Assembly (NCBI GenBank): GCA_951406725.2 | Contig: OX597820.1 | Location: 4,216,001-4,280,000, forward strand | Source: Octopus vulgaris | Taxonomy: Eukaryota | DNA length: 64,000 nt | Direction: 5' to 3' | Part shown: positions 15,825 to 62,799 of the stretch, piece by piece | Numbering within the stretch: the first letter of the stretch is position 1 | How the letters are laid out: each line of letters begins with the position of its first letter | Made by a program: the position numbers and the translations under genes | The notes under the pieces: model-generated | Database searches by the model: none | The model's input: the letters and a program-made list of their open reading frames with translations, nothing else | Told to the model about the DNA's origin: nothing

Positions 15825-15945
15825 TACATATATATACATACATATACATACATACATACATATACATACATACATACATATATACATATATATATATACA
15901 TACCTATATATACATACGCACACATATATGTATGTATATATGTAC

Positions 15946-15976
<31 letters not shown>

Positions 15977-16465: not shown

Positions 16466-16496
<31 letters not shown>

Positions 16497-18390: not shown

Positions 18391-18391
18391 A

Positions 18392-22331: not shown

Positions 22332-22423
22332 AACACTTGTGTGCAGAGGGAGAGAGAGAGTTTCGTTACAACCCAGTGAATCTCTTCCTTTAACTATTCC
22401 CAACACAGTTATTACAAACATCT

Positions 22424-22640: not shown

Positions 22641-22949
22641 CATGTTGCACTCTCACACAACACCGCACTCCTTACGATCACATGCAGCCATCATCTTCCT
22701 ACATATATATATACACACACGATGGGCTTCTTTCAGTTTCCGTCTACCAAATCCACTCACAAGGCTTTGGTCGGCCCGAGGCTATAGTAGAAGACACTTG
22801 TCCAAGGTGCCACGCAGTGGGACTGAACCCGGAACCATGTGGTTGGTAAGCAAGCTACTTACCACACAGCCATGCCTGCGCCTATACTGAATAAACACTC
22901 GCAGACAAATTGCATCTTTAATTTCAAGATAATTGTTGCATTTGGCAGA

Positions 22950-25000: not shown

Positions 25001-25465
25001 GAAATTCATCATCGTTTAACATCCGTTTTCCATGCTGGCATGGGTTGGACGGTTCGACCGGGGTCTGGGAAGCCAGAAGGCTGCACCAGGCTCCAGTCTC
25101 ATCTGGCAGTGTTTCTACAGCTGGATGCCCTTCCTAACGCCAACCACTCCGTGAGTGTAGTGGGTGCTTTTTACGTGCCACCTGCACAGGTGCCAGGCGA
25201 GGCTGGCAACGGCCACGGTCGGATTGGTGCTTTTTACGTGCCACCGGCACAGAAGCCAGTCAAGGTGGCGCTGGCATTGGTCACATACAGAAGGTGCTTT
25301 TTAGGTGCCAACAAAATTTCATTAAATTCCTGTTTCTCTCTTGATATAAAATAAAGTGCTGTCGTTGCATGTTAAAACACAACTGAATAATGAAGAAGAG
25401 GCTTGCGATAAGAGAGCTGTTATCATCGGCTGAGACGAGAGCGGTGGAGGTGGGATGGCTCTCCT

Positions 25466-26180
25466 TTTAAGAGGTTTTATGAGATAACAAATCAGTAGAG
25501 CATCAAATGATATACCTTGTGGCATTTAGCTGAATCCTTTTTATATTCTCAGTTCAATTCATACCTAGGGCCACCTTGCCTTCCATGGTCAATAAAATAA
25601 ATTGTAACCGACAATACTTCAGAAAGTGGTGTTCCAGCATACACTGCCATCTTTAAAACAAGATGGTTATGGTTAGAGTGCTTTTGATCAAATATCTGCT
25701 TAGTAGGGCAAATGTCAGAGTCTAAACAATACCAAAATACAGTTTTATAGATCTATTTGACTGCTTGATTATTTTGGTTTGAGTTCTTGTAAAATCTCAG
25801 AATTTATGGTCTCTCGATAACAGCAGCTTCCAATCTACCTAAACATCACACAAGTTACTGCAGTATTTGTCCAAAGATAACATCTCTTATAGACTTGCTG
25901 TATTTAAAAGCAATACGAGGGGGGGGGGGATGCGAAGATGAAAACTCATCTCTGCAGAAGATAGCAAGAATACCAAATACATTTGGCTTTGCAGGTTTTT
26001 TTTTATTTATTATCAATAATGTTTACTCATAGCTACATGCCTGGATGAAATCCAGCCATGCCAACATATCAGAAACTGTGAATAAAACAATCACTGCTGT
26101 TGTAAATAACTGCTCAGCTGAATAAAAATCTGGTACATGCAATTGAAGCAGTATTAAATTAATATTAAACTATTATTATA

Positions 26181-26217
<37 letters not shown>

Positions 26218-28057
26218 TCAATGTCTTGTATCAAACTCAGAATCTTGGGGTTAGTAGCCTGCGCTCTTAACCACTACGCCATATGCCCGTGAGCAATTAA
26301 GTGGTGAATTTTTAAGGCTTATAAATCTAATATTCTCCTATCCTTCCTTAATACCGATTCCCATATGCTGCTCATATCTGCACTCGGTCTGCTTAGGAGG
26401 TTGTTGTGTTCCAGCATATGTGCTGCTTCTTTTAGTTTTCGTATTTTCCAGTGGTGTCCTTTGTCTATTATTTTAACTTCATCCCACAGGGGGGGGGGGT
26501 GTCTCCATTTTTAAACTATAATAATTTTAAACTAATAATGATATTTTATGATAAGATTTCAATGAATTACAGATTCTAACTTGATATAATTTTTAAAAAA
26601 TGCTGTCATTGCATGTTAAAACACAACCAAATAATGTAGAGGAGGCTTGAGATAAGAGAGGTGTCATCATCAATTGAGTCTAGAAAGGTGGAGGTAGGAT
26701 AGCTCTCCTTCTAAGAGGTTTCAGGAGATAAAGAGAGATAAAAATGATGGGACTAAAGTTCAATGGCTCATTACAATGATAAAAGATTGAAGATTAAAAG
26801 GAAAAATTTTATAATTTGTGAACATGAAGCAAAGCATGGATGTGGGTGACTACCTCTTTGGAGTTAAGTTATCAAATGAGGTGTGGTGAGAGCTATCAAA
26901 GGGAGGAGAAATAGAGATTATCAATTTTAGAAGAGCTGTCGTCTTTATGGTAATTTACATGACTGAACCTGTTGAAAAATTTGGAGGGCAGTACTTAATG
27001 AAATCAGATCAAATCTAGCTTGTTGTTGAGATTTCCATTTTTGTTTTGTCGAATAAAGGATCCATAAAGTATAAGGGACTAAAAAAACTACAGCAATTAC
27101 ATTTATTACAATCCATACTTTACACCCGTTTCGGTCATGGTAATAGACACATCACAATGACAGATGTGACTCTACTCCTATCATCAATCATGACACCACC
27201 ACCACCACCCTAGATCATAATTTTGACAAGAAGGAGCCTCAATTCTTATCCACTCAGGGTCCTCTTACCAGACGATCACTTTCAGCTCTCAATGTCACAG
27301 ACAGCATCCAGCAAGCAGCTGTAAAAATATGTTGGTCATCTGTGCTAGGTCAGCACGGAGTGACTTCATGAATGCAGTTGATGTTGACGACCAACTGCGG
27401 TACTGGAAGTGTAGCAGTCATTAAGAGACTTGCCCAAGCTAAGGAGGACCCAAGTTTTACAGACATGAAAAACAATTGTTATGATTAGTTGTTATTAAGA
27501 TTCTCTTCTAAAGTTGTCCGAAAAAGGATGGAAGTTCAGATATTTCTTATGTCATTGAGTACAGACCAGACCTACATCTTGATGTCCACCTTTGAGGCTA
27601 TCAACAATAATAAAGAATTTGAATTCAGAAATTATCTTAAGCAAGGTGTCCTAGTTAACAGTTTTGAGCAGTTTCTGGTCTGTTAGATTGAAGGGAATGT
27701 ATTTAGTTTTATTTTGGCAGAGACTGGAACCCTAATCTGTTGCAGCAATGGATAAGTCTGAATATTAAAGTCTGTGAACTCCAGTTGATTTGAAGTCCTT
27801 TGTTCAGTGGAATATCCAAGTGTAAATTTTAACAATTGGATCTTGTTCCACACATGCAAGACATTTTGTAACTGTTCAGCTTTGCTACACACATATGTGG
27901 GCCACCTAACAGGTGTTTTGACACCATTAAAGTTTCTTTGTTCATAATGTAGAATATAGTCACAGGTAAGAAGTGTCAAAAGACACATAGACAATAGGTA
28001 CATATAAAAAGTGCTCAGACCAAACCAAGAGCTTAAACACTGAGGTTTATATATATA

Positions 28058-28107
<50 letters not shown>

Positions 28108-29475
28108 TAATTTTTTCTTGAGAACACATTCTCTGTGGAAAATGGCAATTCTGACTATATCTAGCATACAGGCTGTCCATTTTTAGTGGTCAATCCTCTA
28201 AATTTTGTGTATATATATATATATATATATATATGTTAACACTTTCTTTTACTGAACCCTCATTTGTCATTCACAACAAGAGAATCTGTCATATATATAT
28301 ATATATGAGTGTGTGTATGTATATATGTATGTTTATAATACAGACTACAAGTATAATCCATAACAGTATGCATATCTATATCCTGTTCTTAGAGAAAAGG
28401 GGTTTATGAAATTACTTAAACCTAGTCGTTATCAAAGGTTGGTTCTTAGAACTAGAAATCACTGGTATTAATGGAGGAACTTATGGCTATCTTGTCCATT
28501 TGCCAGACTGGACATTTCGGTAAGAAGTGAGCCGCACAAAATGTGAAGAATATTTCCATTAGTTCATGAAGAATGCTTTTTCCTCAGAATAATTCACAAA
28601 ACAAAGAACTCCGCTTGCTGGAATCATTAAGACAATAATCCCACGGACTCAGACGAGCTTTGTATGTGGGGCACAAGGGATTTTTGTCAACTTCATAAAG
28701 TGTTTAAGGGTTCTTTTATGAAGAAAAAAATTTTGTATAAGAGAGCGAGATGTCTTTTTTTTTCTGTTGTAATGGGGGGGGGGGGATACCTCCCTGTGTG
28801 TGTGTGTGTGTAATTATGTGCTTAAGAAGTTTATTTTGCAGCCATGTGATTCCCCATTCTATTTTATTGAATGCAATCTTTTGTAAAGGCTTTCCATTGT
28901 AGCCCTGACTTGACCAATGTCCTGTGAGTGAAATTTGATTGGTGGGAACTGTGCAGATGTTTGTGGGGGTGCATAACAAAACATGATGCATCTAGGTGCA
29001 CCTATTTACACACCAAAACATAACTTAGCCAATTGATAAATGGTACTTGATAAAACAAGTAGCAGACACATGGGGGTTAATAAGCCGTCTAAAAGCCTTA
29101 CATTTTGGTATTGTTTAGACTCTGACATTTGCCCTACTAAGCAGATATTTGATCAAAAGCACTCTAACCATAACCATCTTGTTTTAAAGATGGCAGTGTA
29201 TGCTTGAAGAGGGATTTGGTGGCTACTTCTAGCAGACAGACTGACTTCATATATGTAGCTGTAGTAATATTTTACTGGTTTCTGTTATTGACCTGTGGCC
29301 ATGCTGGAACACCACTTTCTAAAGTATTGTCGGTTACAATTTATTTTATTGACCATGGAAGGCAAGGTGGCCCTAGGTATGAATTGAACTGAGAATATAA
29401 AAAGGATTCAGCTAAATGCCACAAGGTATATCATTTGATGCTCTACTGATTTGTTATCTCATAAAACCTCTTAAA
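25466..29475. repeat. Near-identical inverted duplication: arms 25466-25738 and 29102-29475
   Basis: Read base by base as reverse complements. The left arm lacks ~97 bp lying between atgct microhomologies. Confidence 0.88.
26170..26489 (-). mobile_element. Penelope-like element 3' fragment: GIY-YIG endonuclease C-terminus followed by tRNA-like module and (AAT)n
   Basis: 26489-26319 translates to LWDEVKIIDKGHHWKIRKLKEAAHMLEHNNLLSRPSADMSSIWESVLRKDRRILDL*, a PLE GIY-YIG C-terminal pattern. The tRNA-like head at 26288-26215 belongs to the same family as copies A-C. Confidence 0.75.
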
Positions 29476-29640
29476 CCAGTGAAAGGAAATCCACCCAGCT
29501 AGAAATACATAAATATGAGGCACCAGAAAGACCCACCACCGATACCACAGAGTCCGTCCCCAGCTGGGAACTGAACTGGCTCCTGGGGAGCATTATTGCT
29601 CTCACTCTTTTGAAGAGCTAATAGATTTGTTACATGCACA

Positions 29641-29695
<55 letters not shown>

Positions 29696-30879
29696 CATCT
29701 GTTAAGATTGCTATTTGCGCTGCTTGTCTAATTAATCATCATAAACAGAACTTGTTAATTAATAAAGTGAAGTTCACCAACAGAGGTGAGCTAAAGTTAA
29801 TGTTCACTACCTACTCATTGCACCTATCACTTTTATACCAATGGAACGATATATGCCTCACACCACACACAAATCAGATCCAAACTGAACAAACACACAG
29901 AGTCAGGCACATACACACACACACACGTACGGCCAGTCAAACAGACACTCGTATACAGTCAACCACACACGCTTATCCATTACAATAATTATTCTACAAG
30001 TTATCAAGTTCTACGACTTACTACTACTGTATTTAACAGTAATTATCAAAGTGAGAGACGTCCATCAATGAGAGAGCTGTTGTTAGTAATTGCTGTGACT
30101 AACATAGTTTAAGTGTGACACTAATAAACTATTGTACTATCAAAACATTTGAGGTGAACTAAGGAAGGAAGATCAGAGAAGAGATTAGTTTAGGGTTTGG
30201 TAAAATTACAAAGCCATTTGGCTAAAAGCATGCTTAGAGGTTTATGGTGTGTGTGTGTTATCTGTCATGCATTCACAGTTCACTAGTACTTTCATGTTTT
30301 ATAACAATCTTCAGGTGAATAGCATAGTCATAATATCAATAACAGATTACTGTTACAACTAATGAGTACCATAACAGTATGGCATCCTAGATTTAATGTC
30401 ACTGCATTGGTAAGAAGAGATAACTGTTGCAAAGTTCATGAAACAGACAAACTGAAAAATATTGATATGAAGCTAAATATTAATAACTTTTCCATGCTAG
30501 ATGGTTTGACAGGAATTGGCAAGGCGAGGAGCTGCACTAAGTTCCATTGTCCATTTTGGCATGGTTTCTACAGTTGGATGCCCTTCCTAACACCAACTAC
30601 TTTACAAAGTGTACTGGGTGCTTTTTATATGGCACCAGCACCAACAGGGTTACCAAATACCTTGTGTTATAAACCCAAACTGGAATGTCTAAGTTTAGAA
30701 GGTTTTAATCAACTAAAAATACAGTAATCTACAATACAAACAAAGATTGTTAAATGTAGGCAAAACTAAACTTCAACACAACAACAGTTTTATGCAGCGA
30801 GTTGCTACAGTCTCGGCTAACTAAAAACTAGCACTGAACACGTCATGCCGGAAACAGAACAGAACTGTGCAATCAAGAC

Positions 30880-31600
30880 AATCAAAGTCACGTGATGAAA
30901 ACTAAAATCCCAACACCTTGCAAGACAAAACTTTATTTCATGGCCCCAATCCATGCAAAAAGAAATATTCCATGTTGTTTAGCTCAAGAAATAAGTACAA
31001 TAATTGAAGACAAACAATTTAGAAACAAACATTTAGCAAAAACTGAAAGAATTCTTAATTTCTCAGAAATATCTGCTACTCTAAATAAAGAATAGAATTG
31101 AAAAAATACCTATTTCTTTATTACCCACAAGGGGCTAAACACAGAGAAGACAAACAAGGACAGACAAAGGGATTAAGTCGATTATATCGACCCCAGTGCG
31201 TAACTGGCACTTAATTTATCGGCCCCAAAAGGATAAAAGGCAAAGTTGACCGTAGCGGAATTTGAACTCAGAATGTAACGGCAGACGAAATACTTATTTC
31301 TTTACTACCCACAAGGGGCTAAACACAGAGAGGACAAACGGATTAAGTCAATTATATCGACCCTAGTGCGTAACTGGCACTTAATTTATCGGCCTCGAAA
31401 GGATGGAAGGCAAAGTTGACCTCGGCGGAATTTGAACTCAGAACGTAGCAGCAGACGAAATACCACTAAGCATTTCGCCCGGCATGCTAACGTTTCTGCC
31501 AGCTCGCCGCCTTAAATTGAAAAAATACCAAAACTCAACAACCTCACATAACACAAAAAAGAATAAGATATTCATTGTTTTGACTCATAACCATATGAAA
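30880..31600 (+). pseudogene. Penelope-like RT thumb/linker relic, interrupted by a SINE dimer
   Basis: PIHAKRNIPCCLAQEISTIIEDKQFRNKHL resembles the PLE HP.H.K.NIP..LA..I..IV pattern. The sequence resumes after the 15-bp TSD at 31515-31529. Confidence 0.55.
31111..31514 (-). mobile_element. tRNA-derived SINE (family 2), tandem dimer
   Basis: Head aaggcggcgagctggcagaaacgttagc with B-box gagttcaaattcc. 15-bp TSD aattgaaaaaatacc at 31096-31110 and 31515-31529. Confidence 0.85.
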
Positions 31601-32483: not shown

Positions 32484-35394
32484 CAGACTACTGTTGCTAC
32501 ATAATATTTCTCACTCACAGATTTAAAACTCGTTTTTTTTCCTCTTTAGAAGGTCAGTGACTGTGTGTCACTTTAAAAGTATATACTGTAAGCAAGAGTG
32601 AGTGGCTGCTATCTGTAGCTGGCGGTTGTCCTGTACCGATGAAGAGAAATTACTCAGAAACCATTGCTCTACAGGTATTGCTACGGCTAGAAAGGGACAG
32701 TAAACTCCCTTGCTCACAGTATATGGACACAGATCACGTGTCAGTAGCCAGCTGGAAAAGATGTTTTTCTGGGGCTAAAAAGTAGTAACATCGTCCTGCG
32801 TAGGACTGCCACGTTGTGTTGGCAAAAAGACTTTACATATATTCTTTTATTTGTTTCAGTCATTTGACTGTGGTCATGCTGGAACACCACCTTTAGTTGA
32901 ACAAATCGATCCCAGGACTTATCTTTTGTAAGCCTAGTACTTATCCTATCAGTCTCTTTTGCTGAACCTCTAAGTTACAGGGACATAAACACACCAATCT
33001 CAGTTGTCAAGTGACAGTGAGGGGGGACAAACACAGACACACAAACATGCATATATAAATATATCTGACAGGCTTCTTTCAGTTTCCATCTACCAAATCT
33101 ACTCACAAGGCTTTGGTCAGCCTGAGGCTATAGTAGAAGACACTTGCCCGAGGTTCCACACAGTGGGACTGAACAGAGAACTAAGTGGTTGGGAAGCAAA
33201 TTTCTTACCACACAGCCATGCCTGCACCTATATATATATATTGGACAAACTGGAAATGCGCTGACTGAATGTGTGTGGATACACAAACAGCAGCAAATTA
33301 GAAAGATTCCATGAAGGTAACATCTGGATAACTACTTTTAAAGTATTTACTTTTTTTAAATGAAGAGAGAGTGTAACATTAGAAGGTCTGTTACAGAGAA
33401 ATATTTTACTGAAAAATTCCAACCAAAATAAATGGACGACATCATCACCACCACCACCACCACAATGTTTTCCAATTTGCCTCTATTTCATGATCAATCA
33501 AGCAATAACCTCCCCTTGCTGATACTTTGATATCGAGATTATTCTATTCTCTCATTACAACAAGAACCACCTCTTACCAATACTAGGTTGTTATTTCTGG
33601 GACACTGCGTAAATTCAATACAACAAAGCTATTCATCTTATGAATGTTGTTACTGCAAAACATTGAAGTACTACTTAATTGTGAATACATGTTTCAGAAT
33701 TTGGTTATGTTGAAATCTTTAATGATTAAATACGCTTTCATTGAACATAGATTTTCTAACACACGCACATATCAATCATCTTCATTTAATGCCTGGCTTT
33801 TGTGCTAGGATGGGTTGGTTGGACAGTTCAACAGGGTTCGGCAAACTGGAGGACTGTGACATGCTCCAGTATTCACTCTGCCCTTCAGTAATGCCAACCA
33901 TTTTACAAAGTGGACTGGGCATTTTTTGTAGCACCAGCACTAGTGATGACCAACTTAAAACTCATTGAGTTAAGGGCTTAATGTGAGCTCTATAACTAAG
34001 AGAAGGGCCTTCTCTAGGTCAACAAACATCAGGTATAGGGGCTTGAATCAGGAGAAGGTAGGATGACAAGGAAGTGTAAGATGAGAAGAATAGATTTTAT
34101 AGACGAAAGGGTGTAGAGGGGAGAGTAAGAGGAAGGGGGAATATGGCAGGGGGACAGGAATGGAGTACTACCAGGGATTATTGAGAAAAGAAGAGAGTGG
34201 AATGATCATGGCCGTTGCCAGCCTCCCCTGGCACCTGTGCCAGTGGCACGTAAAAAGCACCCACTACACTCACAGAGTGGTTGGTGTTAGGAAGGGCATC
34301 CAGCTGTAGAAACTCTGCCAGATCAGACTGGAGCCTGGTGCAGCCTCCTGGCTTCCCAGACCCCGGTCAAACCGTCCAACCCATGCTAGCATGGAAAGTG
34401 GACGTTAAACGATGATGATGATGATAATGATGATAGAAAGGTGACTGGGTAGGTTGTGTGTGTATCAGGTCTAGGGATATCCTACATTATAAGAGTGACT
34501 ATACAAGTGTGAGAAGTGGGTAGGAAGGGATGAACAGACTAGGGTGGAGAGGAATCCCGAGGGGGTTCTCTGAAGGGAAGAGAGGTGTGGGAGTAGGCAA
34601 GAAGAGGAGGGAAAGCTGAGAAGGGGTTTGGGGAGGTGAAGCTGTGGGGAAAAGAGAGTAGTAAGAGAAACTCCTGTAGAGAGTGAGGGAGTAGTGGGTG
34701 AGAGCAATAAGAGAAATAAAGGAAAGGGAGCCTAAATGTAGGGAGAAGAAGGGCCATGGAAACATCCCAGATGAGGAGGAAAAGGGAAGAGGGGAGGGGG
34801 GGAAAACTAGGTTCAGTGAGTGCAGTGAGAAAGACAAAGGCCACCTCTGCCGCCAACAAAGGGTTTCTCACTAAACATCAACAGCAAATTGTATGATACT
34901 TGTGGCCAAAATAGGGGGTTACATGTTAGTGACTTAAGGGTCTTGAACGCAATCAGTTTTTAAACTCCTCTGTTATGGCTCAGAGGATTTTTTAATGAAC
35001 AGAAGGGGGTTGAGCCCTAAGCCCTGATGCACCTTTACCTTTGTGCTAAATCCATCACTATGCTTTTTAATAAGCCTCAACCTTACAAGCAGTGCTTCTG
35101 TACATGGTTTGTACAGGTGTCACAAGCCATTCATATTCTCCAAGATTCCTCAGTGACCACCAAATCACAGAGTGTGGAACCCGGTGAAAGGCCTTCTCTA
35201 GGTCAACAAATATCAGGTATAGGGGGCTAAAATCAGGCTAGAGACCTTTTCCACAGCTGTTTCACAAGAAAGATGGCATCAGAAGTACTTTTCTCTGGTA
35301 CAAAATCAAACTGCATTGCCTCTCTGTAAATTCTCGCCCTAATCATTGTACTAAACCTTTTCAATAATTTTCGTAACCTGTTCCAACCTGTGTG

Positions 35395-38623: not shown

Positions 38624-39599
38624 ATTGAGTATATATTTAACAGAAAACCATAATAATATTATAACATTTATTGACATAATGAATTATTATAGCCACATGA
38701 GAGCCATTTCGATGGATAACTTCAAAAACCCTATTAGTCATGGAATCGATCAATTCCTTAATAGCAGCAGGTTGGACTGCCTCTGCTGCAGGTTTGATGG
38801 TCGCCCATAAGACATCTTTTGATGTAAATTGGTGTCCATCGGCATAAACATCTTGTTTAATGATGGAACAAAGATTTTTGAAAGGGTTAAGATCCGGAGA
38901 TGCTAGCAGCCACACCATCAATCTTTCACCTTGTATGCCATAAGACCCTAGGAAAGTTTGGGTGGTCTTGGCAGAGTGGGACGGAGCGATGTCATGCATG
39001 AATACGAGATTCCTTAGAAGTGACAGTGGTATGTCATCTCGCCAGGGCTCCTTCAGGAGATGGCAGTAGGCAGCTGCGGTCCCTTTAACCTCTTCAGGCA
39101 CCCTGACTGGGACAACAAGTCTTTCCCCAATGATACCAGCCCATAACATCACTCCTCCAGCCTGTTGTTGATGTCATAAATGTTGGTAATGCTCATCTCC
39201 AAAACAGACCCAACCGTCAGGTTCATCAAGGGCTGCCCTGGTTTCATCAGAGAACAGAGCACAGCTCCTGTCTAATATCATGTACTTTTGGGCCCATTCA
39301 AGCCTCAAACTCTTGTGAGGGTGTAGTTTCAGGGGTTCCTGCATGGAAGCCATTGTCCTGAGGATGCAATTTCTGGTGGTTTTTGGAACATGAAGTCTGG
39401 CGGCAGTGAAAATGGTTTTGCTTGTTTGTGCAGGTTCCCTACATAACTTGCGGCCAATATGCTTTAAATCCCTAGCTGTCACGGTCTTGAAGGCCCCACA
39501 ATCGGATCGTTTCATCCTTGGCTCTCATGTGGCTAAAAATTCGTTATGTCAAGAAATGTTATAATATTATTATGGTTTTCTGCTAAATATATACTCAAT
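38624..39599 (-). mobile_element. Tc1/mariner DD37E (TRT-like) transposase relic bounded by ~82-bp inverted repeats
   Basis: Motifs FSDETRAALDEPDGW, FMHDIAPSH and SPDLNPFKN, with 37 residues between the second D and the E position (here K). Inverted repeats at 38624-38706 and 39519-39599. Confidence 0.82.
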
Positions 39600-46003: not shown

Positions 46004-49000
46004 ATAACATTATGAAAACGGAGAGGTTATAAATATGGTGTTACAACTTTGTCAGGGCTACCAACACAACAGGCAAAGATCTATACCATAATGCCCCACA
46101 ACAAAATGAATGAGTTCTTACAAGTTATTACAAAGAGATTAACTTTTATTTACAAATGCAGACAAGTCATATTTGTTCACTGGCACGTAAAAAGCACCCA
46201 CGACACTCGCGAAGTGGTTGGCATTAGGAAGGGCATCCAGCTGTAGAAACTCTGCCAGATCAAGATTGGAGCCTGGTGCAGTCATCTGGTTCACCAGCCC
46301 TCACTCATCCGTCCAACCCATGCCAGCATGGAAAGCGGACGTTAAATGATGATGATGATTTTACTCCCCTACACTACCATTTGATGCAGTACAATTCTTT
46401 CAATGGAAGAACGCAACACACAACCTCACTCGCTCACGGTTGGCCACCGACTGGATGACGCCGAAAAAATAGGTGTTTGCCCTTTACTTGCGCTCTGTCC
46501 CCATCTTTGCAAGTTGCCATCTCCATTATATTTATTGTCACTTATCCTTCAATTACCAAGAATAAGTCTGAACAAGTTTTTAATTTAAGAGAAAATTAAA
46601 TAAGGGATAAAAAATTTTTATCTGAAAAAATGACTTTCCGGGCGAAAACTACAAAATTTCATGGTCGATGAGGGTCGCTTTGCAGTTGCTTGATAGAGAG
46701 AAAATTTTGCATAGATTGTTTTTTGTTAATTGGAACAAGATAGCGGGGTGGGAGTTAAAGTTTTAGAAAGTTGAAAAATAAGGGCCACTCTAGTGTACAC
46801 ACACACACACAGAGTGTATATCCAAACCAAGCATATTTTATCAGTTTGCTATTTCTGATTCATTATTTCAATGTCCACATTTCTTATGCTTGCACGAGTC
46901 TTATGAAATGTGTTAAGGCAGATTTTCTAGCCAGATGCCTTTCCTGTTGCCAATCCTTACCCTGTTTCCAAGCAAAATAATATTTCACAGACAACAGAAA
47001 CGAATGACACTGCCTATATGACAGTGACACTCATTTACGACTACGACATGTTGTCAAAGAAATACAAAAATGCCTAGCCACCGCCGTTGCCACTACAACC
47101 ACCACCACTACCACCACACAATGGGCTTCTTTCTGTTCCAGCCCATCAAATTCCCTCAGGGTCTTGGTTAACTCGGGGGCTATGGCAGAAGACATTTTTA
47201 CCACATCTGTCACACAATGAGACTGAAACAGTAACCAAGTGATTAGGATGTAAACTCTCCCCCTGCACATCCCAACCGACAACTGTTTTGTGTGTTTATT
47301 TCTGAATCACTTCAACATGTTACAATGGCAGTAAACAACTTTGAGTGACAGAAGAGAGAGACACTTGTGAAGGTTCCAGATTATTTAATGCATCTCCATC
47401 ATAAAAACAGAGGCAACACACTTTTACAATGTTTTAACTCATCATTAGACATCAGATTTGCTTAGACAATAGATTCTAACTTACACCATCTTGAATATGA
47501 TGGCTTTGGAAAAACTGGTGACATCTGGTTCTCGTATATATTGCGCACATGAATGTTTTAAGTAAAAACTACATTTCACATGAATCATCATCATCATACA
47601 GGGGAAACAGAACCCCACCACCCTTCAGTCATCAACGACCAGGCTATTGTACCCAGAAAGTTCTCCTCCGAGGCACAAGTATGGGCGAGGTTGTTTATGG
47701 AAGGCCAGCAGTCACCCATGCACACCAACCTCCCCTCTCCAAGAGAAAGGGCAAAAGGGGCCGATACAGCTTAGCACCAGCAACGTCATCAATTCCATTT
47801 CTACAGCTGAGTGAACTGGAGAAATGTGAAATAAAGTGTCTTGCTCAAGAACACAACACACATCCTGATGTTTGTGGACTTTATTGAGGTGAAATTTCTA
47901 TGGTTGGATGCCCTTCCTGTCACCAACTCTCACCCATTTCCAAAATTAGGGGCAAAATTTTTCTACGGCCAGATATTTTCATGCAGAACATTGGAAATAA
48001 ATGTGAATGCTTATATGACAGTGACAATTGTTTAAGACTATCGTGCAAAGTCAAGACAAGGAGAGACAAACAGACACACACGACAGGCTTCCGTACAGTC
48101 TCCATCAATCAAATGCACTCACAAGACTTTGGTTGGCCAGAGGCTGTATTAGAAAACACTTGCCCAAAGTACCACACAGCAGGACTGAACCCAGAATCAT
48201 GTGGTTCTTACCACACAGCCACACCTATAAATAAATACAATAACCACATTCCTAAGTGTGGACAACATTTTCATCCTCCTCCTCCTCCCCCTCCAATGTA
48301 CCTTCAAACTTGTCTTCTTGTTGAAATGGTAGTCATGCTCACAGCTTGATTCAAGGTTCTTTTAAAGACCATCACAAACAGCCAAATCAACTCCATATGC
48401 CTACAACAGTTGATGCCAAGGTTAATATCCGAACCAAATTTAAACATGGGACTTGATCCAATTATATTTTTTCCTAAATCAAGATTGAATTCAGAATATT
48501 TTTTCATGAAAATACAATTTTCTTTTTTTTTTTTTTGCAGATAAACTTCTATAAATTCTGATTATTCCAGTAATCCAGAATTTACCAAATAATGCTCATT
48601 CACAATCAAATCTCTGCAACTTTGCGAAGATTTCTATTTTCTCTAAAGAAATACTGAAGCTTTCACAGTTCTTTTAATTATTTCATTAGTCAATGTTTTT
48701 TAATTCAAACTTTATTGATACAGGATCATCTGTGTTAAATAAAAATCATTCATTGATAAAAACCAAACCTAAATATAGGATCTGTAAACTTGGAGACAGA
48801 CAGACAGACCTGAAGCAGACATGGAGACGAGAGAGCTTGTCTTTGATGAGGTTGCAAATGTCAATGGAAGCACTTTCACAAACTTGATCGATTGATTGAT
48901 TAATCAGTTATTACAGATTGGTTAATTGGTTAAATGTTCCTCAATTAACAAAGAATACTAAAAGAAGTGAAAGAGAACCAGTGCATGTGTTTATTATTGA

Positions 49001-49199
49001 CAGAATGATCCTCAGAAGATGCAATAAAATTTGTTTCAATGCAAGAATTGACATCAAGAATCCAGCAAGCCAAATGCAAAAATTGAACTGGACTGACTTT
49101 CCCAATAAAAGCACTTTTAAGTGTTCAGAGAAAATTCATCAAAAATGGATGTTTTTCTACAGTTTCAGACTGCTTTTTCAGGAAAAATGGTTATTTTCT

Positions 49200-49556
49200 G
49201 TTCTATATTTAAGAGATGAGGAATTATTTACATTTGACGGATATTTTTCCTCATCTTGTTTGTTGTTAACACGTTTCGGCTGATATACCCTCCAGCCTTC
49301 ATCAGGTGTCTTGGGGGAATTTCGAGCCTGAGTTCTCATTCCTAAGGTATTTTTCGGAATCGAACTCAGAATCTTAGGTTAGTAGCCTGTGCTCTTAACC
49401 ACTACGCCATATGCCCAATAATAATAACATCACAAAATACCTTGGGTTTGAAATTTCCCCCAAGACACCTGATGAAGGCTTGGAGGGTATATCAGCCAAA
49501 ACGTTGTGTTAACAACAAACAAGATGAGGACAAATATCTGTCAATTGTAAATAATG
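49200..49556 (-). mobile_element. tRNA-headed, hammerhead-bearing non-autonomous Penelope-like element, copy B
   Basis: Minus-strand unit ending at the tRNA 5' end (49416), joined to a plus-strand partial unit. Hammerheads at 49268-49310 (-) and 49464-49510 (+). 15-bp TSD tggttattttctgtt at 49188-49202 and 49557-49571. Confidence 0.8.
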
Positions 49557-52175
49557 TGGTTATTTTCTGTTAAACAATTCTTTTTCAAAAGAGGTTCATC
49601 CATTCTAATCATACTATTTAAAAAAAAAAGGAAAAAAAAGCGTTTTGTGAACAGTTTAAAGAATGATCTGTTGAATAATTTGGGTACTTTTAAGATATTT
49701 CGAAACAACACTGGCAGGAAACAGAATATAATAACCCCAGAGAACTTCAGATTGTAGCTTTAGCCAAATTTTGCAGGAATATGGGGTCAGAGAAGCCCTT
49801 GAATATGGTTTATATAAAATAGTTCATACATATAGTCTGTATAAAATGGTCTATATAATATAGTGTATATAATACAAGCTTTATGGAATGGAGTCAATAT
49901 ATAAAATGATTGATGAATATATTGACTTATTTCAGTAAATCACTTCAAAACATTTTCCAAAGTTTTCTCACTTCAAATATTTTAGCAATGATCCTTTAGG
50001 AGGTTGCCTGACCTGCTAGAAATCAGCCCCATCTCCTTCAAATCACCCCCTTACCTTCATATAAAGAGAAAGAACACAGTGGCTGATTTCGTCTTAGATA
50101 CAATGAGTCTCCAATAGAGATGCAATGGTCATGGCTGAACCATTTTTAATTACAAGCCTATTGGATCAGGGCTAATCTAGGCCTAAACAATAACAAAATA
50201 AAGGATTAAATAGAATTAGTGTTTAAAGAAATTAAAAAAAAAAGAAGTCCCAATGAAGTTTTGTTGGGGGGAAAGGCTGATGAATGAGTGTAAACCAAAT
50301 TAAATAACTACAGATTAATATGGATTAAGGGGAAGTCAATACTTTAATGTTCAAATAAGGGGGTACAACTCCATATAGGTTTTGGTCTCATTTCTATCTC
50401 CTTAGCAAAGCACAGCTTTCATTGTACATGCTGTAGTAGTGATGAATGAATCCCTATGTACATAGACAAACCAGATAATAACTTTGTTTGTAAAAGGTGT
50501 GAAAGCTATTCAATCTTTCTATTGAATACTATCTTTTCCTTTTAGCAAAAGTCACAAAACTTGAGGCAATAATTTAAAGAGCAATAATTTAAATATATTG
50601 ACTGTGAAATTGTTTTATTAAAGAGTTAAGATTCAACAACTCAGTAGAGTTTATTAACGAATTTCAGTTGTCACAGCTGACAAAAGAGTAATTGATTTAA
50701 ACTCAAAGCTAAGTAGGTCACCAGCTGGAACTAAGTTAAACTGCACTAAACCCATTTCTAATCTATTCTTCTTTGGTCGTTAGAAGCCAGGTTATATACT
50801 TTACAGCAGCTTCTCACTTTAAATAGTTTTTTTTTTTGTGTTAAGGTTTAAAAACAGCAGACAAGACAAATGCAGGTCACCTTAAAAATATTTCATTGTT
50901 TCACTGGGCATGGAAGATGCCAGTTGGAGACGACTGTGATTCGGTTGAAATTAAAATTGCTCGGCACAAGCCACGAGAAGGGAAGAGTAGCTTTGTGTGA
51001 GGAGAGAAGATTTTTACATTAAGTATTACAACAACAACCACACGAGCAAAAAAGATTAGGTCATCTTTTATTCTAAAATCAATATTTATCAGCAGGTCAA
51101 CAAATTGTACTTTATTCCCAATGAAATAATCACATTTCGTATTTGAAGTTAACAGCTGATCCTCTTTGCTGGTTTTATTTTTGCAGTTAGCTGCGGGCCT
51201 GCCGTAAGCTTTATGCACCTTATGCACAGGCTCTGCCGGTAACTGAACATTTTACAACTACTGAAACCCCCTCAATATAATAATCCTCATAATCAGTTGC
51301 AGGATGACCCTTTGAATTACAGCTGCAGTCCATTCATTAGGCTTCCTTACAGTTTCCATCTTCACATTTTCGATTAAATGCCTCGAGTTGATCCAGGGCT
51401 GTGGCAGAAAATACTTGCCCAATGTGCTACAGAGTAGGATTGAAACAGGGACCACTTAACTGTGAACCTCTTGTCCATATGTCCATATTAGAATTGACAT
51501 TTATGCAGTTTACTATAAGGATTTCTTGACCACCAGGTGGACAGCGGAGGTAGGTGCCAAGACACGGGGATTGAGAGGGGTCTTATCTTGTAGACCTCAC
51601 TGGTGCTGATGTCATGAAAAGCACCCAGTACACTTTGGATCCAGCTGTAGAAACCATGCCAAAGCAGACATAGAACTTGGCACTGCCTTTTGGCTTGTCT
51701 GTTTTTGTCAAACCATCCAACTCATGCCAGCATGGAAAATGGGAACATTAAATGATGACGAAGATCAGAAGATTCAATGTATTGCCATTGCTATTTTTTG
51801 CTGTTATTTTAATGGCAAAGTGAGGGGAGGAATGGCAGCACTCAAGACCCTTTTTAGGAATCTTCATGGCTGATGAGAACAAGTGAATTTCAAACAAGAA
51901 ACCAAATTTATTAACAACGGAGCTGATTTGACTAAGCACATGCAAAGGCCAGTTGATGGTGTTAAGTCAAGAATTGGAATCAGCCTTTCCAAAATTTCAC
52001 TCACAAGGATTTTATTAACCTCAAACTGTGGTAGAAGACACTTGCTGAATGTACTGTGTAGTGGGATTGAAACTAGAACTTCTCAAACACACAACCAGTA
52101 GAAGACAAGGCTCCAGCTGGCCTCAATACTGCTGGTAAAGCAGTTATCAAAGTTGCAAAAACATACACCTGCTGT

Positions 52176-52536
52176 ACTAAATTTAAGAGATGAGGAATTA
52201 TGTACATTATTTACACGGGCATATGGCGTAGTGGTTAAGAGCGCAGTCTACCAACCCCAAGATTTCAAGTTCAATTTCAGGTAGTGACCTGAACAACAAC
52301 AACAACAAGAAGAAGAAGAAGAAGAAGAAGAAGAAGAAGAAGAAGAAGAAGAAGAAGAAGAAGAACAACAACAACAACAAGAAGAAGAAGAAGAAGAAGA
52401 AGAAATACCTTAGGAATGAGAACCCAAGTTCGAAATTTCCCCAAGACACCTGATGAAGGCTGGAGGGTATATCAGCCGAAATGTTGTGTTAACAACAAAC
52501 AAGATGAGGACAAAGATCCGTCAAATGTAAATAATG
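52176..52536 (+). mobile_element. tRNA-headed, hammerhead-bearing non-autonomous Penelope-like element, copy C
   Basis: Short inverted end, tRNA head (52217-52290), (AAC/AAG)n, hammerhead (52445-52490). Degenerate TSD aacatacacctgctgt / aacatgctcctgctgt. Confidence 0.78.
52445..52490 (+). ncRNA. Minimal type I hammerhead ribozyme (best-preserved copy of its family)
   Basis: gacac-CTGATGA-a-ggctg(gagggtatat)cagcc-GAAA-t-gTT-gtgtt. Stem I is gacac/gtgtt and stem II is ggctg/cagcc. Stem III has no loop (AC|GT in sister copies). Confidence 0.75.
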
Positions 52537-52731
52537 AACATGCTCCTGCTGTTTGATGGTCCCTTTGTTTGTGAAACTTGGGTAATTGCATTAACAAGAG
52601 GGAAGTACAGCATGAGGGATGCTGACATGGTGAAGTTTTAAAGTAGAAACCAAAGATTTGAGAGGGACTATGTAGAACATACGAGGTGGATTAGATAGTT
52701 AACTAATTGCTATCCTGCTACAATAATTTAA

Positions 52732-54398: not shown

Positions 54399-55118
54399 CA
54401 TATCATGTTGAATAGAGCAAACCAGGTTGAAGTTTTTCCTAAGACCAGGATACAATATGTTTCCATCCTGGGCCAATCTTATGGGGGTTGCAAGAGTGAC
54501 ACTTAAGGGGGTGACTATGCACCATTGGAGAATAATCTAGTAAAATGTAAATCCTTCCTTGTAGAATATTTCTGATGACATCATCAAATCTTGAACCCGT
54601 TCTGCTAGAACACAAGAGCCATGTATCACCTTAGATGCAAAAAGAAACTGATACCACAAATGCATCTGGTAGTTTTTCACATGTAAAGGTGTAAAAAAAA
54701 ACAAAAAAAGCCAAGACCAGGACTTTTGAATGGTGCCATACCAAAAGTGTAGATAGGAATGAAATAACAGTGGACCACAAAAGTAGAACAATTGTGTTGC
54801 AGACATTTAAGATTTAGAAATATAGATATAATATATAAATAATGATAGACAGACCTATAGATCGACTGATACCTATGGATATGATAAGGTATAAAGAATA
54901 AGTGATAGACAGATAGATAGAAATAAATGATAAAGTCAAAAACATCAACTACATATAGTAAAAATTGTTTGCCAACATGACATGGCAGTCCTGGGTTAGG
55001 ACGAATGTTGCTGTTTTAGCCTCAGGAGACATCATCTCCAGCTGGCTATACGACACAATCTGTGTCCTTATATTTTCAAACAAGGGAATCTATCACCCCC
55101 ACTCAGCTCAAAACGATA

Positions 55119-55163
55119 TCTGTGTATCGCAATTTCTGGGTTATTTCCCTTCATCAGCACAGA
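55119..55163 (-). ncRNA. Minimal type I hammerhead ribozyme in a second PLE-derived repeat (54960-55170)
   Basis: tctgtg-CTGATGA-aggg(aaataa)ccca-GAAA-ttgcga-TA-cacaga, with a 6-bp stem I and near-palindromic stem III. Confidence 0.68.
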
Positions 55164-58100
55164 ATAATAGTTCAACTAGAGATGGCACTGCCAAATTCCC
55201 GTTTGAAATATACAGTTTTCAAAGTGACAACTAATCACTGATCTATAAATTATATCTTATGGAAAGGTAAAATCTGTAGAGATTCTACCTTCTAAACTTC
55301 AAAACATGACTTCAAGACATTAATTTAAAAACCTCTGTCACTGTTTTGCCATCATTAACCACAAGTTTGCTTGTAATCAACAAGATGTATATTAGACTTT
55401 AAAAAAAAACATCTTAGGAAAATGAGTCCCTTCAGAAGCAGATCTTAAATCATTTGGATCTAAATTTGAACTGAAAAAGATTTCAGTAAGAATACACTCA
55501 GGCTAAACACAATCAAGAAAGAATACAACACCAGAAGCAGAGTCTTCTCCTTCACAAACGACACCTGATTCCTCTTTTATCCTCTTTTTTTCTCCATTTG
55601 TCATTCATGCACACTAAACTAATGTATCCCAGTGGAGCGTACTCACTTCATTCCCGTTTAGTCTTTGCAAATTTCTCTTCTTTCAAAACCTACATGATGC
55701 TACCATGTAGCATCACAGCTCATTGCATAATAAGCATCATACAATCTGCCCTTCATTTAGAGAGAGACCTTTTGTTACCAGCAGAGTAACAAAGTAAAGT
55801 AAGAAAGTACTGGCAGTCGTAAGGGACCTACAGAGTTGGTCTGTGTTCTTACTCAGGCATCTAGGCTTTCAGAACATCCACCTCCACTGCGAATCAGATC
55901 ATCAAGGCAACAAATCTGAATGTTTGAAAGAATACATTTCATGTGTGCTGTCCCTGCTGACTGCTCCAGTGCATCTGCCATATATAAAGTCTACAGTCTC
56001 TGTTTGCCAGTCACTACTCATCTTGCACATCCAAACTTTAGATTGAGTACATCATGTGCAATGTCAGCCTACTTCTTTATTACATATCAAGCACAGTTAT
56101 TTCCCTTAAAGCACTTAACAAAGCTTTACTCTTTGTTAAGTTTACTTTGAAGTCCCTAAATTCCAGGTTTGGCTTCCACATCTAAATATGTTCTCTAAAA
56201 CAGAAGGTTCAAAGAACAGCCAGTCTTAAACTCCTGTCATCACTTGGAAGATTATAATAAACAGGAACGAAGTGAGAACTGAACCCTGATGGACTCCTAC
56301 CAACACACTAAATTCCTTGTTGAACTTATTGTTGATTGCTCCTATGTGCATGGTTTGCACTGTCCCCACAATTCTTCAAAATTATCCATCTTTCAAAATG
56401 AACATTTTCAATATTTTCTTGAAGATGATGCCTGTGCTTCTGTTAAATTTCACACAGAATCTAATGGGATTTCTTTACAAAAAATCAAATTGTTATGTGA
56501 CCCACAATTTCTGTGCAGATAATCTAAAGACCTATACAGGTAATATGTATACAATGCATCCCAAGGCTTGTTTTCTTAACTGTCCAATGAAAATACTAAA
56601 AACTTAATTGCTCATGTTTGTATTTACACAACAAGAACATATTTCACCAGAGAAACTAGGATACAACATGGTCATATAATAATCAAACTGCTTTGACACA
56701 AAACAAAACCCAACAATGAAATGCTCTAACAAAACTCTCCTCCAGCAATGGATGGGCACAAAAGTATACATTAAATCTGCAATTGATGGGACTTGAAGAT
56801 CTGTAAGAGACAAGGTCTGATGGTCTGTGGTGATGCATTCTGGTTTCAACCGAATCAAGATTTAAAAAATAGTGCTTTAGTCATCGTGAATGCTGATTAG
56901 ACAGTGTTTCTGTGAATGTCTCACTAATTGGAATGGTCTGTAACATGGACATTACCACCATGCAGTTCCCTCAGCCACAAATGACAGAGTTACAAAGAAC
57001 CATAATATTCAATCAATACTATTAGGTAATCAACAAAAAAGCACTTTTTACATACAAAATCTAGACTTTTACCAGAAGGCCACACCCCTGTTGGTTTATT
57101 CTATCAAAGATGATATTTCAGCCATTAGATATAACCAGTGTTGCAGGGTAGAAGACAACAAAAGAATACTAATAATAGATTTGGTACACCAAAAATTCCA
57201 AAAACATGAAATATGTAGAAAAACAATCACATTTTAAAGATTGTGGCAACACATTCAGTGTAAAAAAACTTGTTTACTGGAGAATATCTTTCGGAGATTA
57301 GCAAGATTTAAAATTTCTTAAAATAATCAAAACAAAAATACACTTTCTTGTGATCCTTTTTGTCTAAATTCATTAAACAACAGCTTAAGTATCACACTTT
57401 TCATAAATATTTTTATGGATTATAAATAAATTGTATAATTTATTGAGTATTTGTACAATAGATTTTTAAAAAGCAGTCGACAAAAATTTCATCCGCAAAT
57501 GGAGAGAAAGTTTGTTTTACAAATTTCCTTTCCATTTTGATGCATAAATTTACATATCTTCACTTATTTTTCATTTCATCTCTCATTTTCCCACATGTCC
57601 TGAAGAAGAGGTTATAGCCCCAAAATTTAGAAATATAAAAATTTGTTTTCTTTTCTTTTTGGAGTTTATATCTTCATAATGTATCATCATCATTTAACGT
57701 CCGCTTTCCATGCTAGCATGGGTTGGACGGTTCAACTGGGGTCTGTGAAACCAGAAGGCTGCTTCAGGCCCAGTCTGATCTGGCAGTGTTTCTACAGCTG
57801 GATGCCCTTCCTAACGCCAACCACTCCGAGAGTGTAGTGGGTGCTTTTTACGTGCCACCCGCACAGGTGCCAGACGGAGCATTATATAAAAGATTTTTAT
57901 GGTAAATATTGAAAAAATTAGGGTTTGGTGTAGTAACAATATAATCTTTGTATACATTATTTAGTTCAAGACCTCACTGAACACAATGTCTTTCATAATA
58001 TAATGGCTTTTCCCCATCATTTCTTTTATTTTTTAGTCTGAATACAATTCCAGAAAAAAAAAAACCGATTGTCCATGGTGGAACAGTGGCCGTGGTACAT

Positions 58101-59556: not shown

Positions 59557-59850
59557 GGGTGAGTATAAATTATATCCAATAGAAATTTCTGCAGGATCAA
59601 GGGGTCACCAACAAATTAGAGAACACTAAAACCCAAATAGCATTGTGGGCAGAGATGACAACAACAAGACTTTTCACTTAGTAGAGAGGATAAATAAAGC
59701 AGATATTGAATTCTTTCCATTCTAAATCTGTATTATTTGTGCCATTTAAATATTTACTACACCGATATTTGTCTCTCTATTAAGGTACCAGGCATCAAAG
59801 TATCAAGGCAGTTTCAATGAAGATTGAAGATTCAAACTGTTCTATGGAGC

Positions 59851-60100
59851 AAAGATTATTTGCCAACATAACATGGCAGTCCTGGTTTAGGACGAATGTT
59901 GCTGTAATTTAGCCCCAGGAGACATCGTCTCCAGCTGGCTATACAACACAATCTGTGTCCTTATATTTTCGAACGAGGGCATCTAGCACCCCCACTCAGT
60001 CCTAAACCAGGACTGCCATGTTATGTTGGCAAACAATCTTTACAACAAAGTACTGTTACTGAATATCTCTCATTGTGAGATTTACAAAAAGTAATTTTCC
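59851..60100. mobile_element. Same PLE-derived repeat, with internal inversion (arms ~59851-59893 and 59999-60041)
   Basis: aaagattatttgccaacataacatggcagtcctggtttaggac followed by its near-perfect reverse complement. Confidence 0.65.
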
Positions 60101-61799
60101 AAACTGTTCTGGTTTTCAAATTTAGAACATATGGTGGCATCCTGGTGTGAGTAAATGAGTTTAAAACCCCAAATAAGGGAGCACTCGTAACTTCCAGTTG
60201 GTTGCCGCTACTTATTGGTTTGTCTATTTTTTTTTTTTTTTAGTTATGCACTGGCATGGCTGTGTGGTTAAGAAGCTTGCTTTCCAGCCACATGGTTTCA
60301 GGTTCAGTCCCACTGCATGGCACCATGGGACATGCCTCCTAAAAGTTTGCTTACATTTGTAATATCTTGATAATTTTCCATACTTTGTAACCCTGTGTCA
60401 TTAAATTTGGGACCCCTTTTTTTTGAGAATCCTGTTAAGTGTTTGCTGCGTCAAAAGGAAGAAAAAGACGGTGTTTTCCTTGGAAATGAAATTATGAAGG
60501 AATGAAATGGTGGAGATTAAGAAGTCTCCCTTAGATTGAGCCACAAATTCTCCACACTGGGAGATCATAGCCTCTGGTATTACAGATATGATTAGATTGA
60601 CAGAGGGAAAAAATCACAAGAGCCAACCAGCAGGAAACCTAGGATTAGAGACCAAGAGTGAGATGGTTGGATAATAATATCCATACTCTTGGTTGGTCAT
60701 GCTTGGGAATCCAGCTGGAAGCTGTAATCATGGTTGTTTCTTTGAGGACCCTATGGAGGAGGTGCCTGAGGGCTCTAGCTCCGCAACCCTTCCAGGGAAT
60801 AATGGGCAGAGCAAATGGATGGATGAAACAGTGGACAGGGTGTTAGCATAATACAATAAAGCATCCAGTGTGACTGGGGGGGGGGGAGAAAAACCCCACC
60901 CCAAATACCCGAAACTAAAGATGCTACTTATCACACACAATAAGTCTCTTATTATTTGCACAATTTGAGGGATTAATTAAAGACATTAGATCCACTCAGC
61001 CTTTGTGCGAAAGAAAAAAAAAAAAGCAAAAAGAAAACTTTTACTATTCACTTATGACATTTCAATTTTTTTCTTTTGTTTTTACATCATCATCATCATC
61101 ATCATTTAGCGCCCGCTTTCCATGCTAGCATGGGTTGGACGGTTCAACTGGGGTCTGGGAAGCCAGAAGGCTGCACCAGGCCCAGTTTGATCTGGCAGTG
61201 TTTCTACAGCTGGATGCCCTTCCTAACGCCAACCACTCCACGAGTGTAGTGGGTGCTTTTTACGTGCCACCGGCACAGGTGCCAGACGAGTCTGGCAAAC
61301 GGCCACGATCGCATGGTGCTTTTTATGTGCCACCGGCACGGGGGCCAGGTGAGGCTGGCAACGGCCTTTTACCAAAGAAAATTTTTTTTGCCCTGGACAA
61401 TTGTCTTCTCCCTTGTTGCATTTCACTTTGAAGTATAACATACAAACTTATGCCCTGACAAGTGAAAGAACACAAGAGATGGATGGATTAAACATGCTAA
61501 TTAGGTATTTATGTATTTAAATCTCAAATATGCAAATTACGCACAGCAGGTTTTGAAATTTTCAAATAGTTTACATTCCTCATTTATGTTTTACCAAGTT
61601 TGAACAGAATTCCATTATTGTTCCTTTGTTACTGTTCTGTTTCAATAAAAGAGACACAACAGTGCAGCCAACCTCTTTCAGCCAATTCCTTGTCTGCTCG
61701 TCTCATTGTATAAAAAAATCTCACCACACCAGGAGAGAAGCTGGAGATTCAAAATAAAGGTCCAGTTTATTGGTAAAAAAAAAACAATCTATAAATAAC

Positions 61800-62799
61800 A
61801 TAACTGAAACAAGTAAAAAAAATCCTATATTGTCTTCATCCTCATCATTGTTTAGCATTCACCTTTCCAAGCTTGCAAGAATCAGACAGAATTTTTTGAG
61901 GCCGATTTCTTACTGCCAGATGCCCTTCCTGTCACCAACCCTTACCTGTTTCCAAACCAGGTAATATTTCCCCATGGCCAGACATGTTTCTTCAGAAGAT
62001 TTGGAATGAAGGACACTGCTTGTATGACAGGGACGCTTATTTACAACCACCATGCACTATCAAGGCAAGGATAAGTACACACACATGTAAGATAGACTTC
62101 TTTCAGATTCCTCCTATGAAATCTGTTCACAAGGTTTTGGTTGGTTTGGAGTTATCACAAATGACTCTTACCCAAGATTCCATATATCAGGATTGAATCT
62201 GACGCCATGTGGCTGGGAAGCAAATCTCTTACCAAGCAGCCACTTGTGGCTTGGAAAAATATTTTTTTTTTTCTGTATTGAAAATATATTCCAATCAGCT
62301 GCCCTAGATTTTGAAAACGACATCCTTACAAATGGAATATTCTTCAGTGCTACACTCAAGCAGACCCCTCTCCTTTACAAATGGAATAACCCTCACTTTT
62401 GTTGCCATTGTAATGTGTCCAGTTTTCAAAAATTACCTAATTTAAAAATTTCAAGGATTTGAAACCTTGTGAACAGATTTCATAGGAGGGATCTGAAAGA
62501 AGTCTATCTTACATGTGTGTGTACATATCCTTGCCTTGATAGTGCATGGTGGTTGTAAATAAGCGTCCCTGTCATACAAGCAGTGTCCTTCATTCCCAAT
62601 CTTCTGAAGAAACATGTCTGGCCATGGGGAAATATTACCTGGCTTGGAAACAGGTAAGGGTTGGTGACAGGAAGGGCGTCTGGCAGTAAGAAATCGGCCT
62701 AAAAAAATTCTGTCTGATTCTTGCAAGCTTGGAAAAGTGAATGCTAAACAATGATGAGGATGAAGACAATATAGGATTTTTTTTACTTGTTTCAGTTAT
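61800..62799. repeat. Inverted duplication: ~338-bp arms 61800-62137 and 62462-62799 with a ~324-bp spacer
   Basis: Arms are reverse complements with few mismatches. The ORF track shows matching peptides on opposite strands (TETSKKNPILSSSSSLFSIH..., DAYLQPPCTIKARI). Confidence 0.92.

Follow-up and report, generated by a model that had tools for sequence, protein, structure and literature searches.

The stretch of Octopus vulgaris DNA analyzed here (the window: 64,000 nucleotides, positions 4,216,001 to 4,280,000 of contig OX597820.1) raises the question of how a short repeat comes to be inserted as two copies of itself, joined head to head with their tails pointing outward and a duplicated target site on either side. 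In the available text of two reports on Penelope elements (PLEs), the origin of their inverted, tailed insertions is described as still undefined (PMC8557442, PMC11167929). Self-comparison of the window reveals three complete insertions of one element, A (5845-6151), B (49200-49556) and C (52174-52536), each made of two head-to-head arms, and one head-only fragment, D. The element itself is non-coding, ~230 nt long and a very abundant octopus repeat. It opens with a leader and a tRNA-like head containing A and B boxes, continues through an (AAT)n run and a short spacer, and closes with a minimal type I hammerhead motif followed by a tail. The features of the four copies, including their target-site duplications (TSDs), are listed below.

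5832-5843, plus strand: copy A, left TSD, matching 6153-6164 at 11 of 12 positions
5845-5924, minus strand: copy A, short tail-bearing arm, starting 2 nt past the predicted cut, with the tail in a 9-bp stem
5923-6151, plus strand: copy A, full-length arm with AC leader, A box at 5932, B box 45 nt further on, (AAT)n run and short end
Core at 6065, plus strand: copy A, hammerhead of the full-length arm, with A9 mutated
6153-6167, plus strand: copy A, right TSD and GTT (GTT at 6165-6167)
26201-26291, minus strand: copy D, head and (AAT)n run only, with CAC leader; hammerhead and tail absent nearby
49188-49202, plus strand: copy B, left TSD of 15 bp, its last GTT common to the tail terminus
49200-49416, minus strand: copy B, tail-bearing long arm
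49200-49221, minus strand: copy B, tail of the long arm
About 49268-49310, minus strand: copy B, hammerhead motif of the long arm, with a 3-nt deletion
49358-49416, minus strand: copy B, tRNA-like head of the long arm
Within 49200-49416, minus strand: copy B, internal deletion in the long arm, removing the 3′ end of the head and the (AAT)n run
49417-49556, plus strand: copy B, partner arm from the (AAT)n run to the short end, with hammerhead core at 49469 and predicted cut after 49505
49557-49571, plus strand: copy B, right TSD; flank contigs of four organisms enter both ends of B
52160-52175, plus strand: copy C, left TSD, matching 52537-52552 at 14 of 16 positions
52174-52215, minus strand: copy C, very short tail-bearing arm
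52214-52536, plus strand: copy C, full-length arm with CAC leader, head from 52217, expanded (AAC/AAG)n run and short end
52445-52490, plus strand: copy C, hammerhead, the best-kept copy
52537-52553, plus strand: copy C, right TSD, ending in GTT

All three insertions have a tail-ended left arm on the minus strand, which runs through ...TCCTCATCTCTTAAATATAGAAC, and a plus-strand right arm that terminates at GTAAATAATG, 22-32 nt before the tail terminus. This inverted, tail-out layout and both of its ends are present as a preliminary description of the locus had given them, and contigs from four public runs pile up at the same ends. That description had also set the right end ~30 nt short of the left, which holds for A and C, where the tail extends 31 and 32 nt beyond the short end, and fails for B, where it extends only 22 nt because one 9-nt unit is missing. 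The junction, which had been assigned to the 5′ G of the tRNA in every copy, indeed falls close to the initial G of the head in all three, at a distance of 0-3 nt; the assignment is exact only for B, as an AC or CAC leader precedes this G in copies A, C and D and is absent from B. The junctions of A and C show a 2-nt overlap of the leader with the partner arm, that of B is blunt, and a palindromic spacer is absent from all three. Which arm is full length differs between copies: in B it is the one that carries the tail, in A and C the one that stops at the short end. Its partner measures ~80 nt in A, ~140 nt in B and ~42 nt in C. Because the long arm switches sides and the partner arm varies, what stays constant is the pair of outer ends and one side of the junction; the architecture that had been called fixed is so in this narrower sense, with the head missing from two of the nine head-to-head joints described below. 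An inverted, 5′-truncated arm head to head with the main arm (three of three complete copies) and a tail at one end only, marking two start sites (31, 32 and 22 nt, against 30-40 nt in PLEs), are both hallmarks of PLE insertions, and the earlier reading of the inverted arm and the one-sided tail as Penelope-like agrees with the published PLE signature, to which a short TSD also belongs. In copy B, the long arm lacks the 3′ end of the head and the (AAT)n run (49357-49358) and the partner arm begins within the (AAT)n run (49417), a layout that, in this one copy, is compatible with one enzyme having bypassed another on a shared RNA molecule.

The target sites were compared next to the arms that they flank. 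The TSD is perfect in B (15/15; 49188-49202 = 49557-49571) and decayed in A (11/12) and C (14/16), as had been described, and among 3000 random pairs of 30-mers drawn from the window the scores of B, A and C were reached 1, 12 and 4 times, respectively. Four of the 15 bases in the B duplication (the 5′ T and the 3′ GTT) match the element too, which leaves 11 bp that can be assigned to the target without ambiguity. In A, B and C alike (3/3), the tail-side edge of the right-hand target copy reads GTT, as does the tail terminus. GTT occurs at 1.7% of window positions, so that the chance of this coincidence, with one base of slip allowed in A, is ~1e-5, a post hoc value for n = 3. The recurrence suggests either a 3-nt pairing of primer and template or a cutting preference. 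No empty site was seen for B, as the left- and right-flank contigs of all four organisms enter the insertion.

The head was assigned from its box motifs. An A box and a B box, judged against the consensus boxes of tRNA promoters, are spaced 44-45 nt apart in the element; in a scan of the window, only two of 15 A-box-like matches are accompanied by a B box at this distance, and both lie within the element. At the family level, the four-run contigs show a loose end at 49377, with the B box intact. ARAGORN found no tRNA genes, four Rfam searches returned neither a tRNA nor a hammerhead match even at E ≤ 10, and three blastn matches of the head to phage sequences, all at E = 2, were set aside as chance. 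Because ARAGORN, Rfam and the phage comparison were all negative, the head is called only tRNA-like, resting on the box motifs. The element carries A and B boxes at tRNA spacing at its 5′ end, as a tRNA-derived SINE does; its 3′ end is neither LINE-derived nor a poly(A) or repeat tail, but consists of the hammerhead and tail and has two fixed termini. Across the spacer, ribozyme and tail, one frame remains open for ~50 codons (52404-52535; 49199-49351), which may be chance, as no polyprotein relative was found.

The motif scan and secondary structure predictions identified a minimal type I hammerhead motif with a palindromic stem III upstream of the tail, as in PLEs. The predicted fold is best kept in copy C (stem I of 5 bp, stem II of 6 bp, intact core, z = −2.0); each of the remaining three hammerhead copies has a core lesion, and their folds are non-significant where tested (z = −0.2 and −0.7). 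The majority base in the four-run contigs at 49498, G, restores GAAA. Stem III consists only of the 6-nt palindrome AACGTT, and the predicted cut after 49505 is placed from the minimal-hammerhead layout. The tail folds back onto the body of the element in a predicted 9-10-bp stem (z = −2.5 and −3.7); the loop of this hairpin contains the short end. An AC-rich stem-loop forms the start site of PAc, a lizard PLE protein, in the available text of PMC11167929, and the octopus tail hairpin, with the short end in its loop, is similar. The 9-nt unit at the short end differs in number, with one in the left arm of B (49223-49231), two imperfect units in A (5877-5885) and C (52206-52214), and more elsewhere, a variation that could reflect slippage at the start site.

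A separate repeat family with a hammerhead-like core, unrelated to the element, is also present in the window. Its copy at 59833-60110 (minus strand) has an inverted tail arm and a headless main arm, and is flanked by an exact 11-bp TSD (59833-59843 and 60100-60110); relatives lie at 18122-18389, 54957-55167 and 32551-32842. Long, near-perfect inverted repeats at 61800-62799 (338 bp, 98%), 25466-29475 (175 bp, 99%) and 38624-39599 (83 bp, 93%) are probably DNA-transposon ends or young inverted repeat copies.

To follow the family beyond the window, contigs of the four public runs (four organisms; 15,224-30,882 contigs per run) were aligned to 48500-50300 at 85% likeness. Summed contig depth over the ribozyme is ~10^4-10^5 times that of the flanks, which is an order of magnitude only and not a copy number. 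Among the best six rows per run (1,986 more lie beyond those), loose ends with long flanks (median 220-255 letters) occur at the same positions in all four runs: 49200, the tail end, and 49223 and 49557, the short end. The joints were taken from the best 15 of 356 by support, and are therefore a selected sample. Nine of these 15 are head-to-head joints; the others, which were excluded, are three joining 49232-49234 to 49552-49557 (artefacts of the 9-nt deletion in B) and three internal deletions. Six of the nine fall no more than 5 nt from the initial G of the head, one stops 13 nt short of it and two are without the head. Seven of the nine place the start of the partner arm between 49499 and 49514, a span of −7 to +8 nt around the predicted cut; with the sample selected by support, this clustering is a lead.

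Peptide searches place the family in Octopus sinensis and O. bimaculoides as well (species names as given by the sources). The 85 profile matches are mostly translated repeat copies, in which both ends recur and the short end carries differing numbers of 9-nt units. Gene models P0001 and P0002 (Octopus sinensis, O. bimaculoides) open with the translated element and exit just before GTAAAT at the short end; as GTAAAT resembles a splice donor, exonisation or an annotation artefact is possible. In ENA assemblies, peptides alone point to a sister family with the same ribozyme frame and two ends ~30 nt (about 10 codons) apart, arranged both as antisense-sense pairs and as retrozyme-like head-to-tail tandems of about 129 nt (e.g. 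P0005, P0015, P0031 and P0063). No match emerged when viral, metagenome and prokaryote contigs were scanned for exact patterns.

A source of the enzyme was sought in the same data. No open reading frame combining a reverse transcriptase with a GIY-YIG domain is attached to the ~230-nt element, which sets it apart from an autonomous PLE, no PLE-like frame was recognised by eye among the open frames of the window, and no PLE polyprotein was returned by peptide searches with the open frame of the module. The matches that these searches did return are translations of repeat copies, the two gene models and one false match to an EGF repeat; a second frame, from the ATG in the hammerhead with a stop read through as X, had no peptide match. 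Elsewhere in the window, a 1039-codon open frame (12432-15548, plus strand) resembles a LINE endonuclease-reverse transcriptase by eye, with a 300-codon frame upstream of it at 11692-12591.

Taken with the precedent of PAc, these observations are probably best explained by copying of the element in trans by a Penelope-type reverse transcriptase-endonuclease, likely with one cDNA primed per target strand. RNA polymerase III, directed by the A and B boxes, would begin the transcript 0-3 nt ahead of the head and continue beyond the tail. Nicks 12-17 nt apart, as implied by the TSDs, would leave two 3′ overhangs, each of which would prime an antisense cDNA inside the RNA. The two start sites would be the tail start, behind the hairpin, and the hairpin loop about 30 nt upstream. 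One cDNA would usually run off the 5′ end of the RNA and the other stop early, and the two cDNA 3′ ends would then be joined via 0-2 nt of microhomology and filled in. The junction would lie at the head because the cDNA runs off the RNA 5′ end there. Separate priming of each strand, at nicks spaced 12-17 nt, would account together for the TSD, the outward orientation of the tail and the inequality of the two ends. The templates would most likely be held by a protein dimer, or a single RNA would be read twice, and ribozyme cleavage would likely be dispensable. In vitro, PAc nicks and extends both strands from two internal RNA starts that bound the tail; uncleaved RNA serves as its substrate, hammerhead mutants insert normally and the protein is predicted to be a dimer, according to the available text of PMC11167929. 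The RNA sites at which PAc starts share no homology with its target, whereas the targets of the octopus element end, like its tail, in GTT (3/3).

That both DNA strands are primed had already been proposed for the three insertions, and the evidence is in favour: the two arms have sequence in common, in A and C it is the short arm that bears the tail, and PAc extends both strands. The tail on the short arm in A and C must therefore have its own priming and is not copied from the long arm. Arm identity does not distinguish one template RNA from two: the two arms of B differ by 8 mismatches and 3 gaps, the other pairs by 6-10 mismatches and 0-4 gaps, so that arms within an insertion resemble each other no better than arms of different insertions. 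Several points stand against trans copying by a Penelope-type enzyme: searches with two frames of the module and inspection of the open frames of the window yielded no autonomous partner, the head is tRNA-like by its boxes only, the contigs of four organisms show no empty site, the GTT-ended targets differ from those of PAc, and the clustering of partner arms near the cut (7/9) is explained only as a pause.

This clustering leans toward the RNA dimer that the preliminary description gave as an alternative to a single short RNA, possibly held together by the palindromic stem III. In such an explanation, which we consider unlikely, one of two stem III-paired RNAs would be cut, or would block the enzyme, at the hammerhead, giving one full-length arm and a partner ending at the ribozyme. 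Minimal PLE hammerheads cut only as dimers in the available text of PMC4209133, and the partner of copy A starts at +2, in keeping with the −7 to +8 range of the contig joints. The range was, however, drawn after inspection of nine joints from a support-chosen 15 of 356, none of the nine falls exactly at the predicted cut and four of the seven within the range lie upstream of it; in the window, the partner arm of B crosses the whole ribozyme and that of C ends long before it. The evidence does not establish the dimer itself: stem III is only a 6-nt palindrome, unconstrained co-folding yields ordinary stem-swapped dimers to which AACGTT brings no special gain, and PAc hammerhead mutants insert normally in the portion of PMC11167929 available. 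A stem III dimer is thus possible, but is neither needed nor favoured by co-folding. Rather improbable, too, is the broader proposal that a large octopus SINE family is a Penelope-driven Pol III transcript in which the hammerhead pairs two RNAs and sets the stop of the second cDNA, and a GTT overhang pairs with the tail start; if true, tens of thousands of short copies record, base by base, how Penelope elements build inverted, tailed insertions, and the hammerhead gains a role in integration.

Single priming, with one cDNA that folds back to prime itself or jumps to an antisense template, is more doubtful still. Self-priming has been modelled for rotifer PLEs from palindromes at inverted junctions (PMC3846280, available text), and short palindromes do lie near the octopus ribozyme. 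Nevertheless, the short arm of A and C holds 31-32 nt that are absent from the long arm, the partner arm of B holds an (AAT)n run absent from its long arm, and the three junctions lack a palindromic spacer. L1-type twin priming copies non-overlapping parts of one RNA, and, as that model is generally understood, arms that overlap in sequence rule it out. A SINE driven by a LINE in this way, or a DNA element with terminal inverted repeats, is accordingly very improbable: TSDs of 12-16 bp are LINE-like, and SINEs and LINEs are plentiful in octopus genomes (available text of PMC13282606 and PMC8967140), but a poly(A) tail is absent, a fixed tail separates the two ends and the arm lengths vary. We give equally little credence to a local accident that set a SINE piece beside PLE end fragments, so that head and ribozyme are not one transcribed unit. 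Copy D is head only, two of the nine joints among the best 15 of 356 are headless and summed contig depth is lower over the head than over the ribozyme, as such an accident would have it; against this, the same head-to-ribozyme order recurs at three unlinked loci in the window, and the O. bimaculoides gene model P0002, judged from its peptide, appears to run from head-like codons into the ribozyme frame.

With its defined 5′ end and very many copies, so short a template makes rival PLE models separable by counting, the countable features being the identity of the long arm, the stop of the partner arm, the nick spacing and the pairing of target and RNA. The results also suggest that part of the octopus 'SINE' fraction may depend on Penelope enzymes, not LINEs, which is relevant to repeat annotation. 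In O. vulgaris, PLEs are plentiful and have been active recently (PMC13282606), and PLEs and many unclassified SINEs feature in the available text of octopus repeat papers (PMC13282606, PMC8967140); one such paper, checked for the word in its available text, does not mention hammerheads. No report of a PLE-driven SINE, or of a monomeric PLE passenger with a tRNA-like head, in octopus was found in a literature search whose scope lay outside most subscription journals, Repbase and Dfam. The insertion architecture is therefore already known, as the PLE signature; its carrier is probably undescribed, and the GTT-ended targets and the partner-arm stops near the predicted ribozyme cut are details new here. 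Octopus SINEs named OK, OR1 and OR2, tRNA-derived short retroposons, were reportedly described by Ohshima and Okada in 1994. Like the present element with its tRNA-like head, they are, by description alone, short octopus retroposons, and later literature, in the text available, names OR2 as a CORE SINE.

Among known systems with a ribozyme, Sm-alpha and Sj-alpha of Schistosoma are SINE-like, tRNA-derived and hammerhead-bearing (PMC6765202, PMC2770079, available text), and share with the octopus element a tRNA-type Pol III promoter (boxes only in octopus) followed by a hammerhead in a short, high-copy, non-coding unit. They are, however, tandem repeats from which the ribozyme frees monomers, whereas the octopus element has a minimal PLE hammerhead and occurs as dispersed head-to-head pairs, and its full-length arms need uncleaved RNA. 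Animal non-LTR retrozymes are proposed passengers of PLEs (PMC7229834; bioRxiv 10.64898/2026.07.22.740005), and non-autonomous PLEs include Chlamys-N4 and MRC1, Chlamydomonas among their hosts (PMC9977147, PMC8557442). In the available text of these sources, both resemble the octopus element in being non-coding, with a PLE-like 3′ end, proposed use of a PLE enzyme and TSDs of >4 bp. Retrozymes are tandem hammerhead-bearing units, and for neither group does the consulted text mention a tRNA-like head such as the octopus element has; no tandem occurs among the window copies, and tandems appear only in the peptides of the sister family. The closest likeness in insertion structure is to endonuclease-positive PLEs, whose insertions have an inverted pLTR, a 31-bp tail on one arm and an 8-10-bp TSD, and whose pLTR ends suffice for mobilisation in trans (Pen2a_Av, PMC3846280); the same unit is drawn in the Figure 2 legend of PMC8557442 (available text of both). 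Unlike PLE units, the octopus element has no open reading frame and no direct pLTR tandem, its long arm is ~230 nt with a tRNA-like A/B-box head, its TSDs are 12-17 bp and its target matches the tail end over 3 nt (3/3). It shares with them the head-to-head inverted, 5′-truncated arm, the tail of 30-40 nt on one arm, the short TSD and a hammerhead upstream of stem-loop starts, and so, judged from its sequence, appears to work like a non-autonomous PLE.
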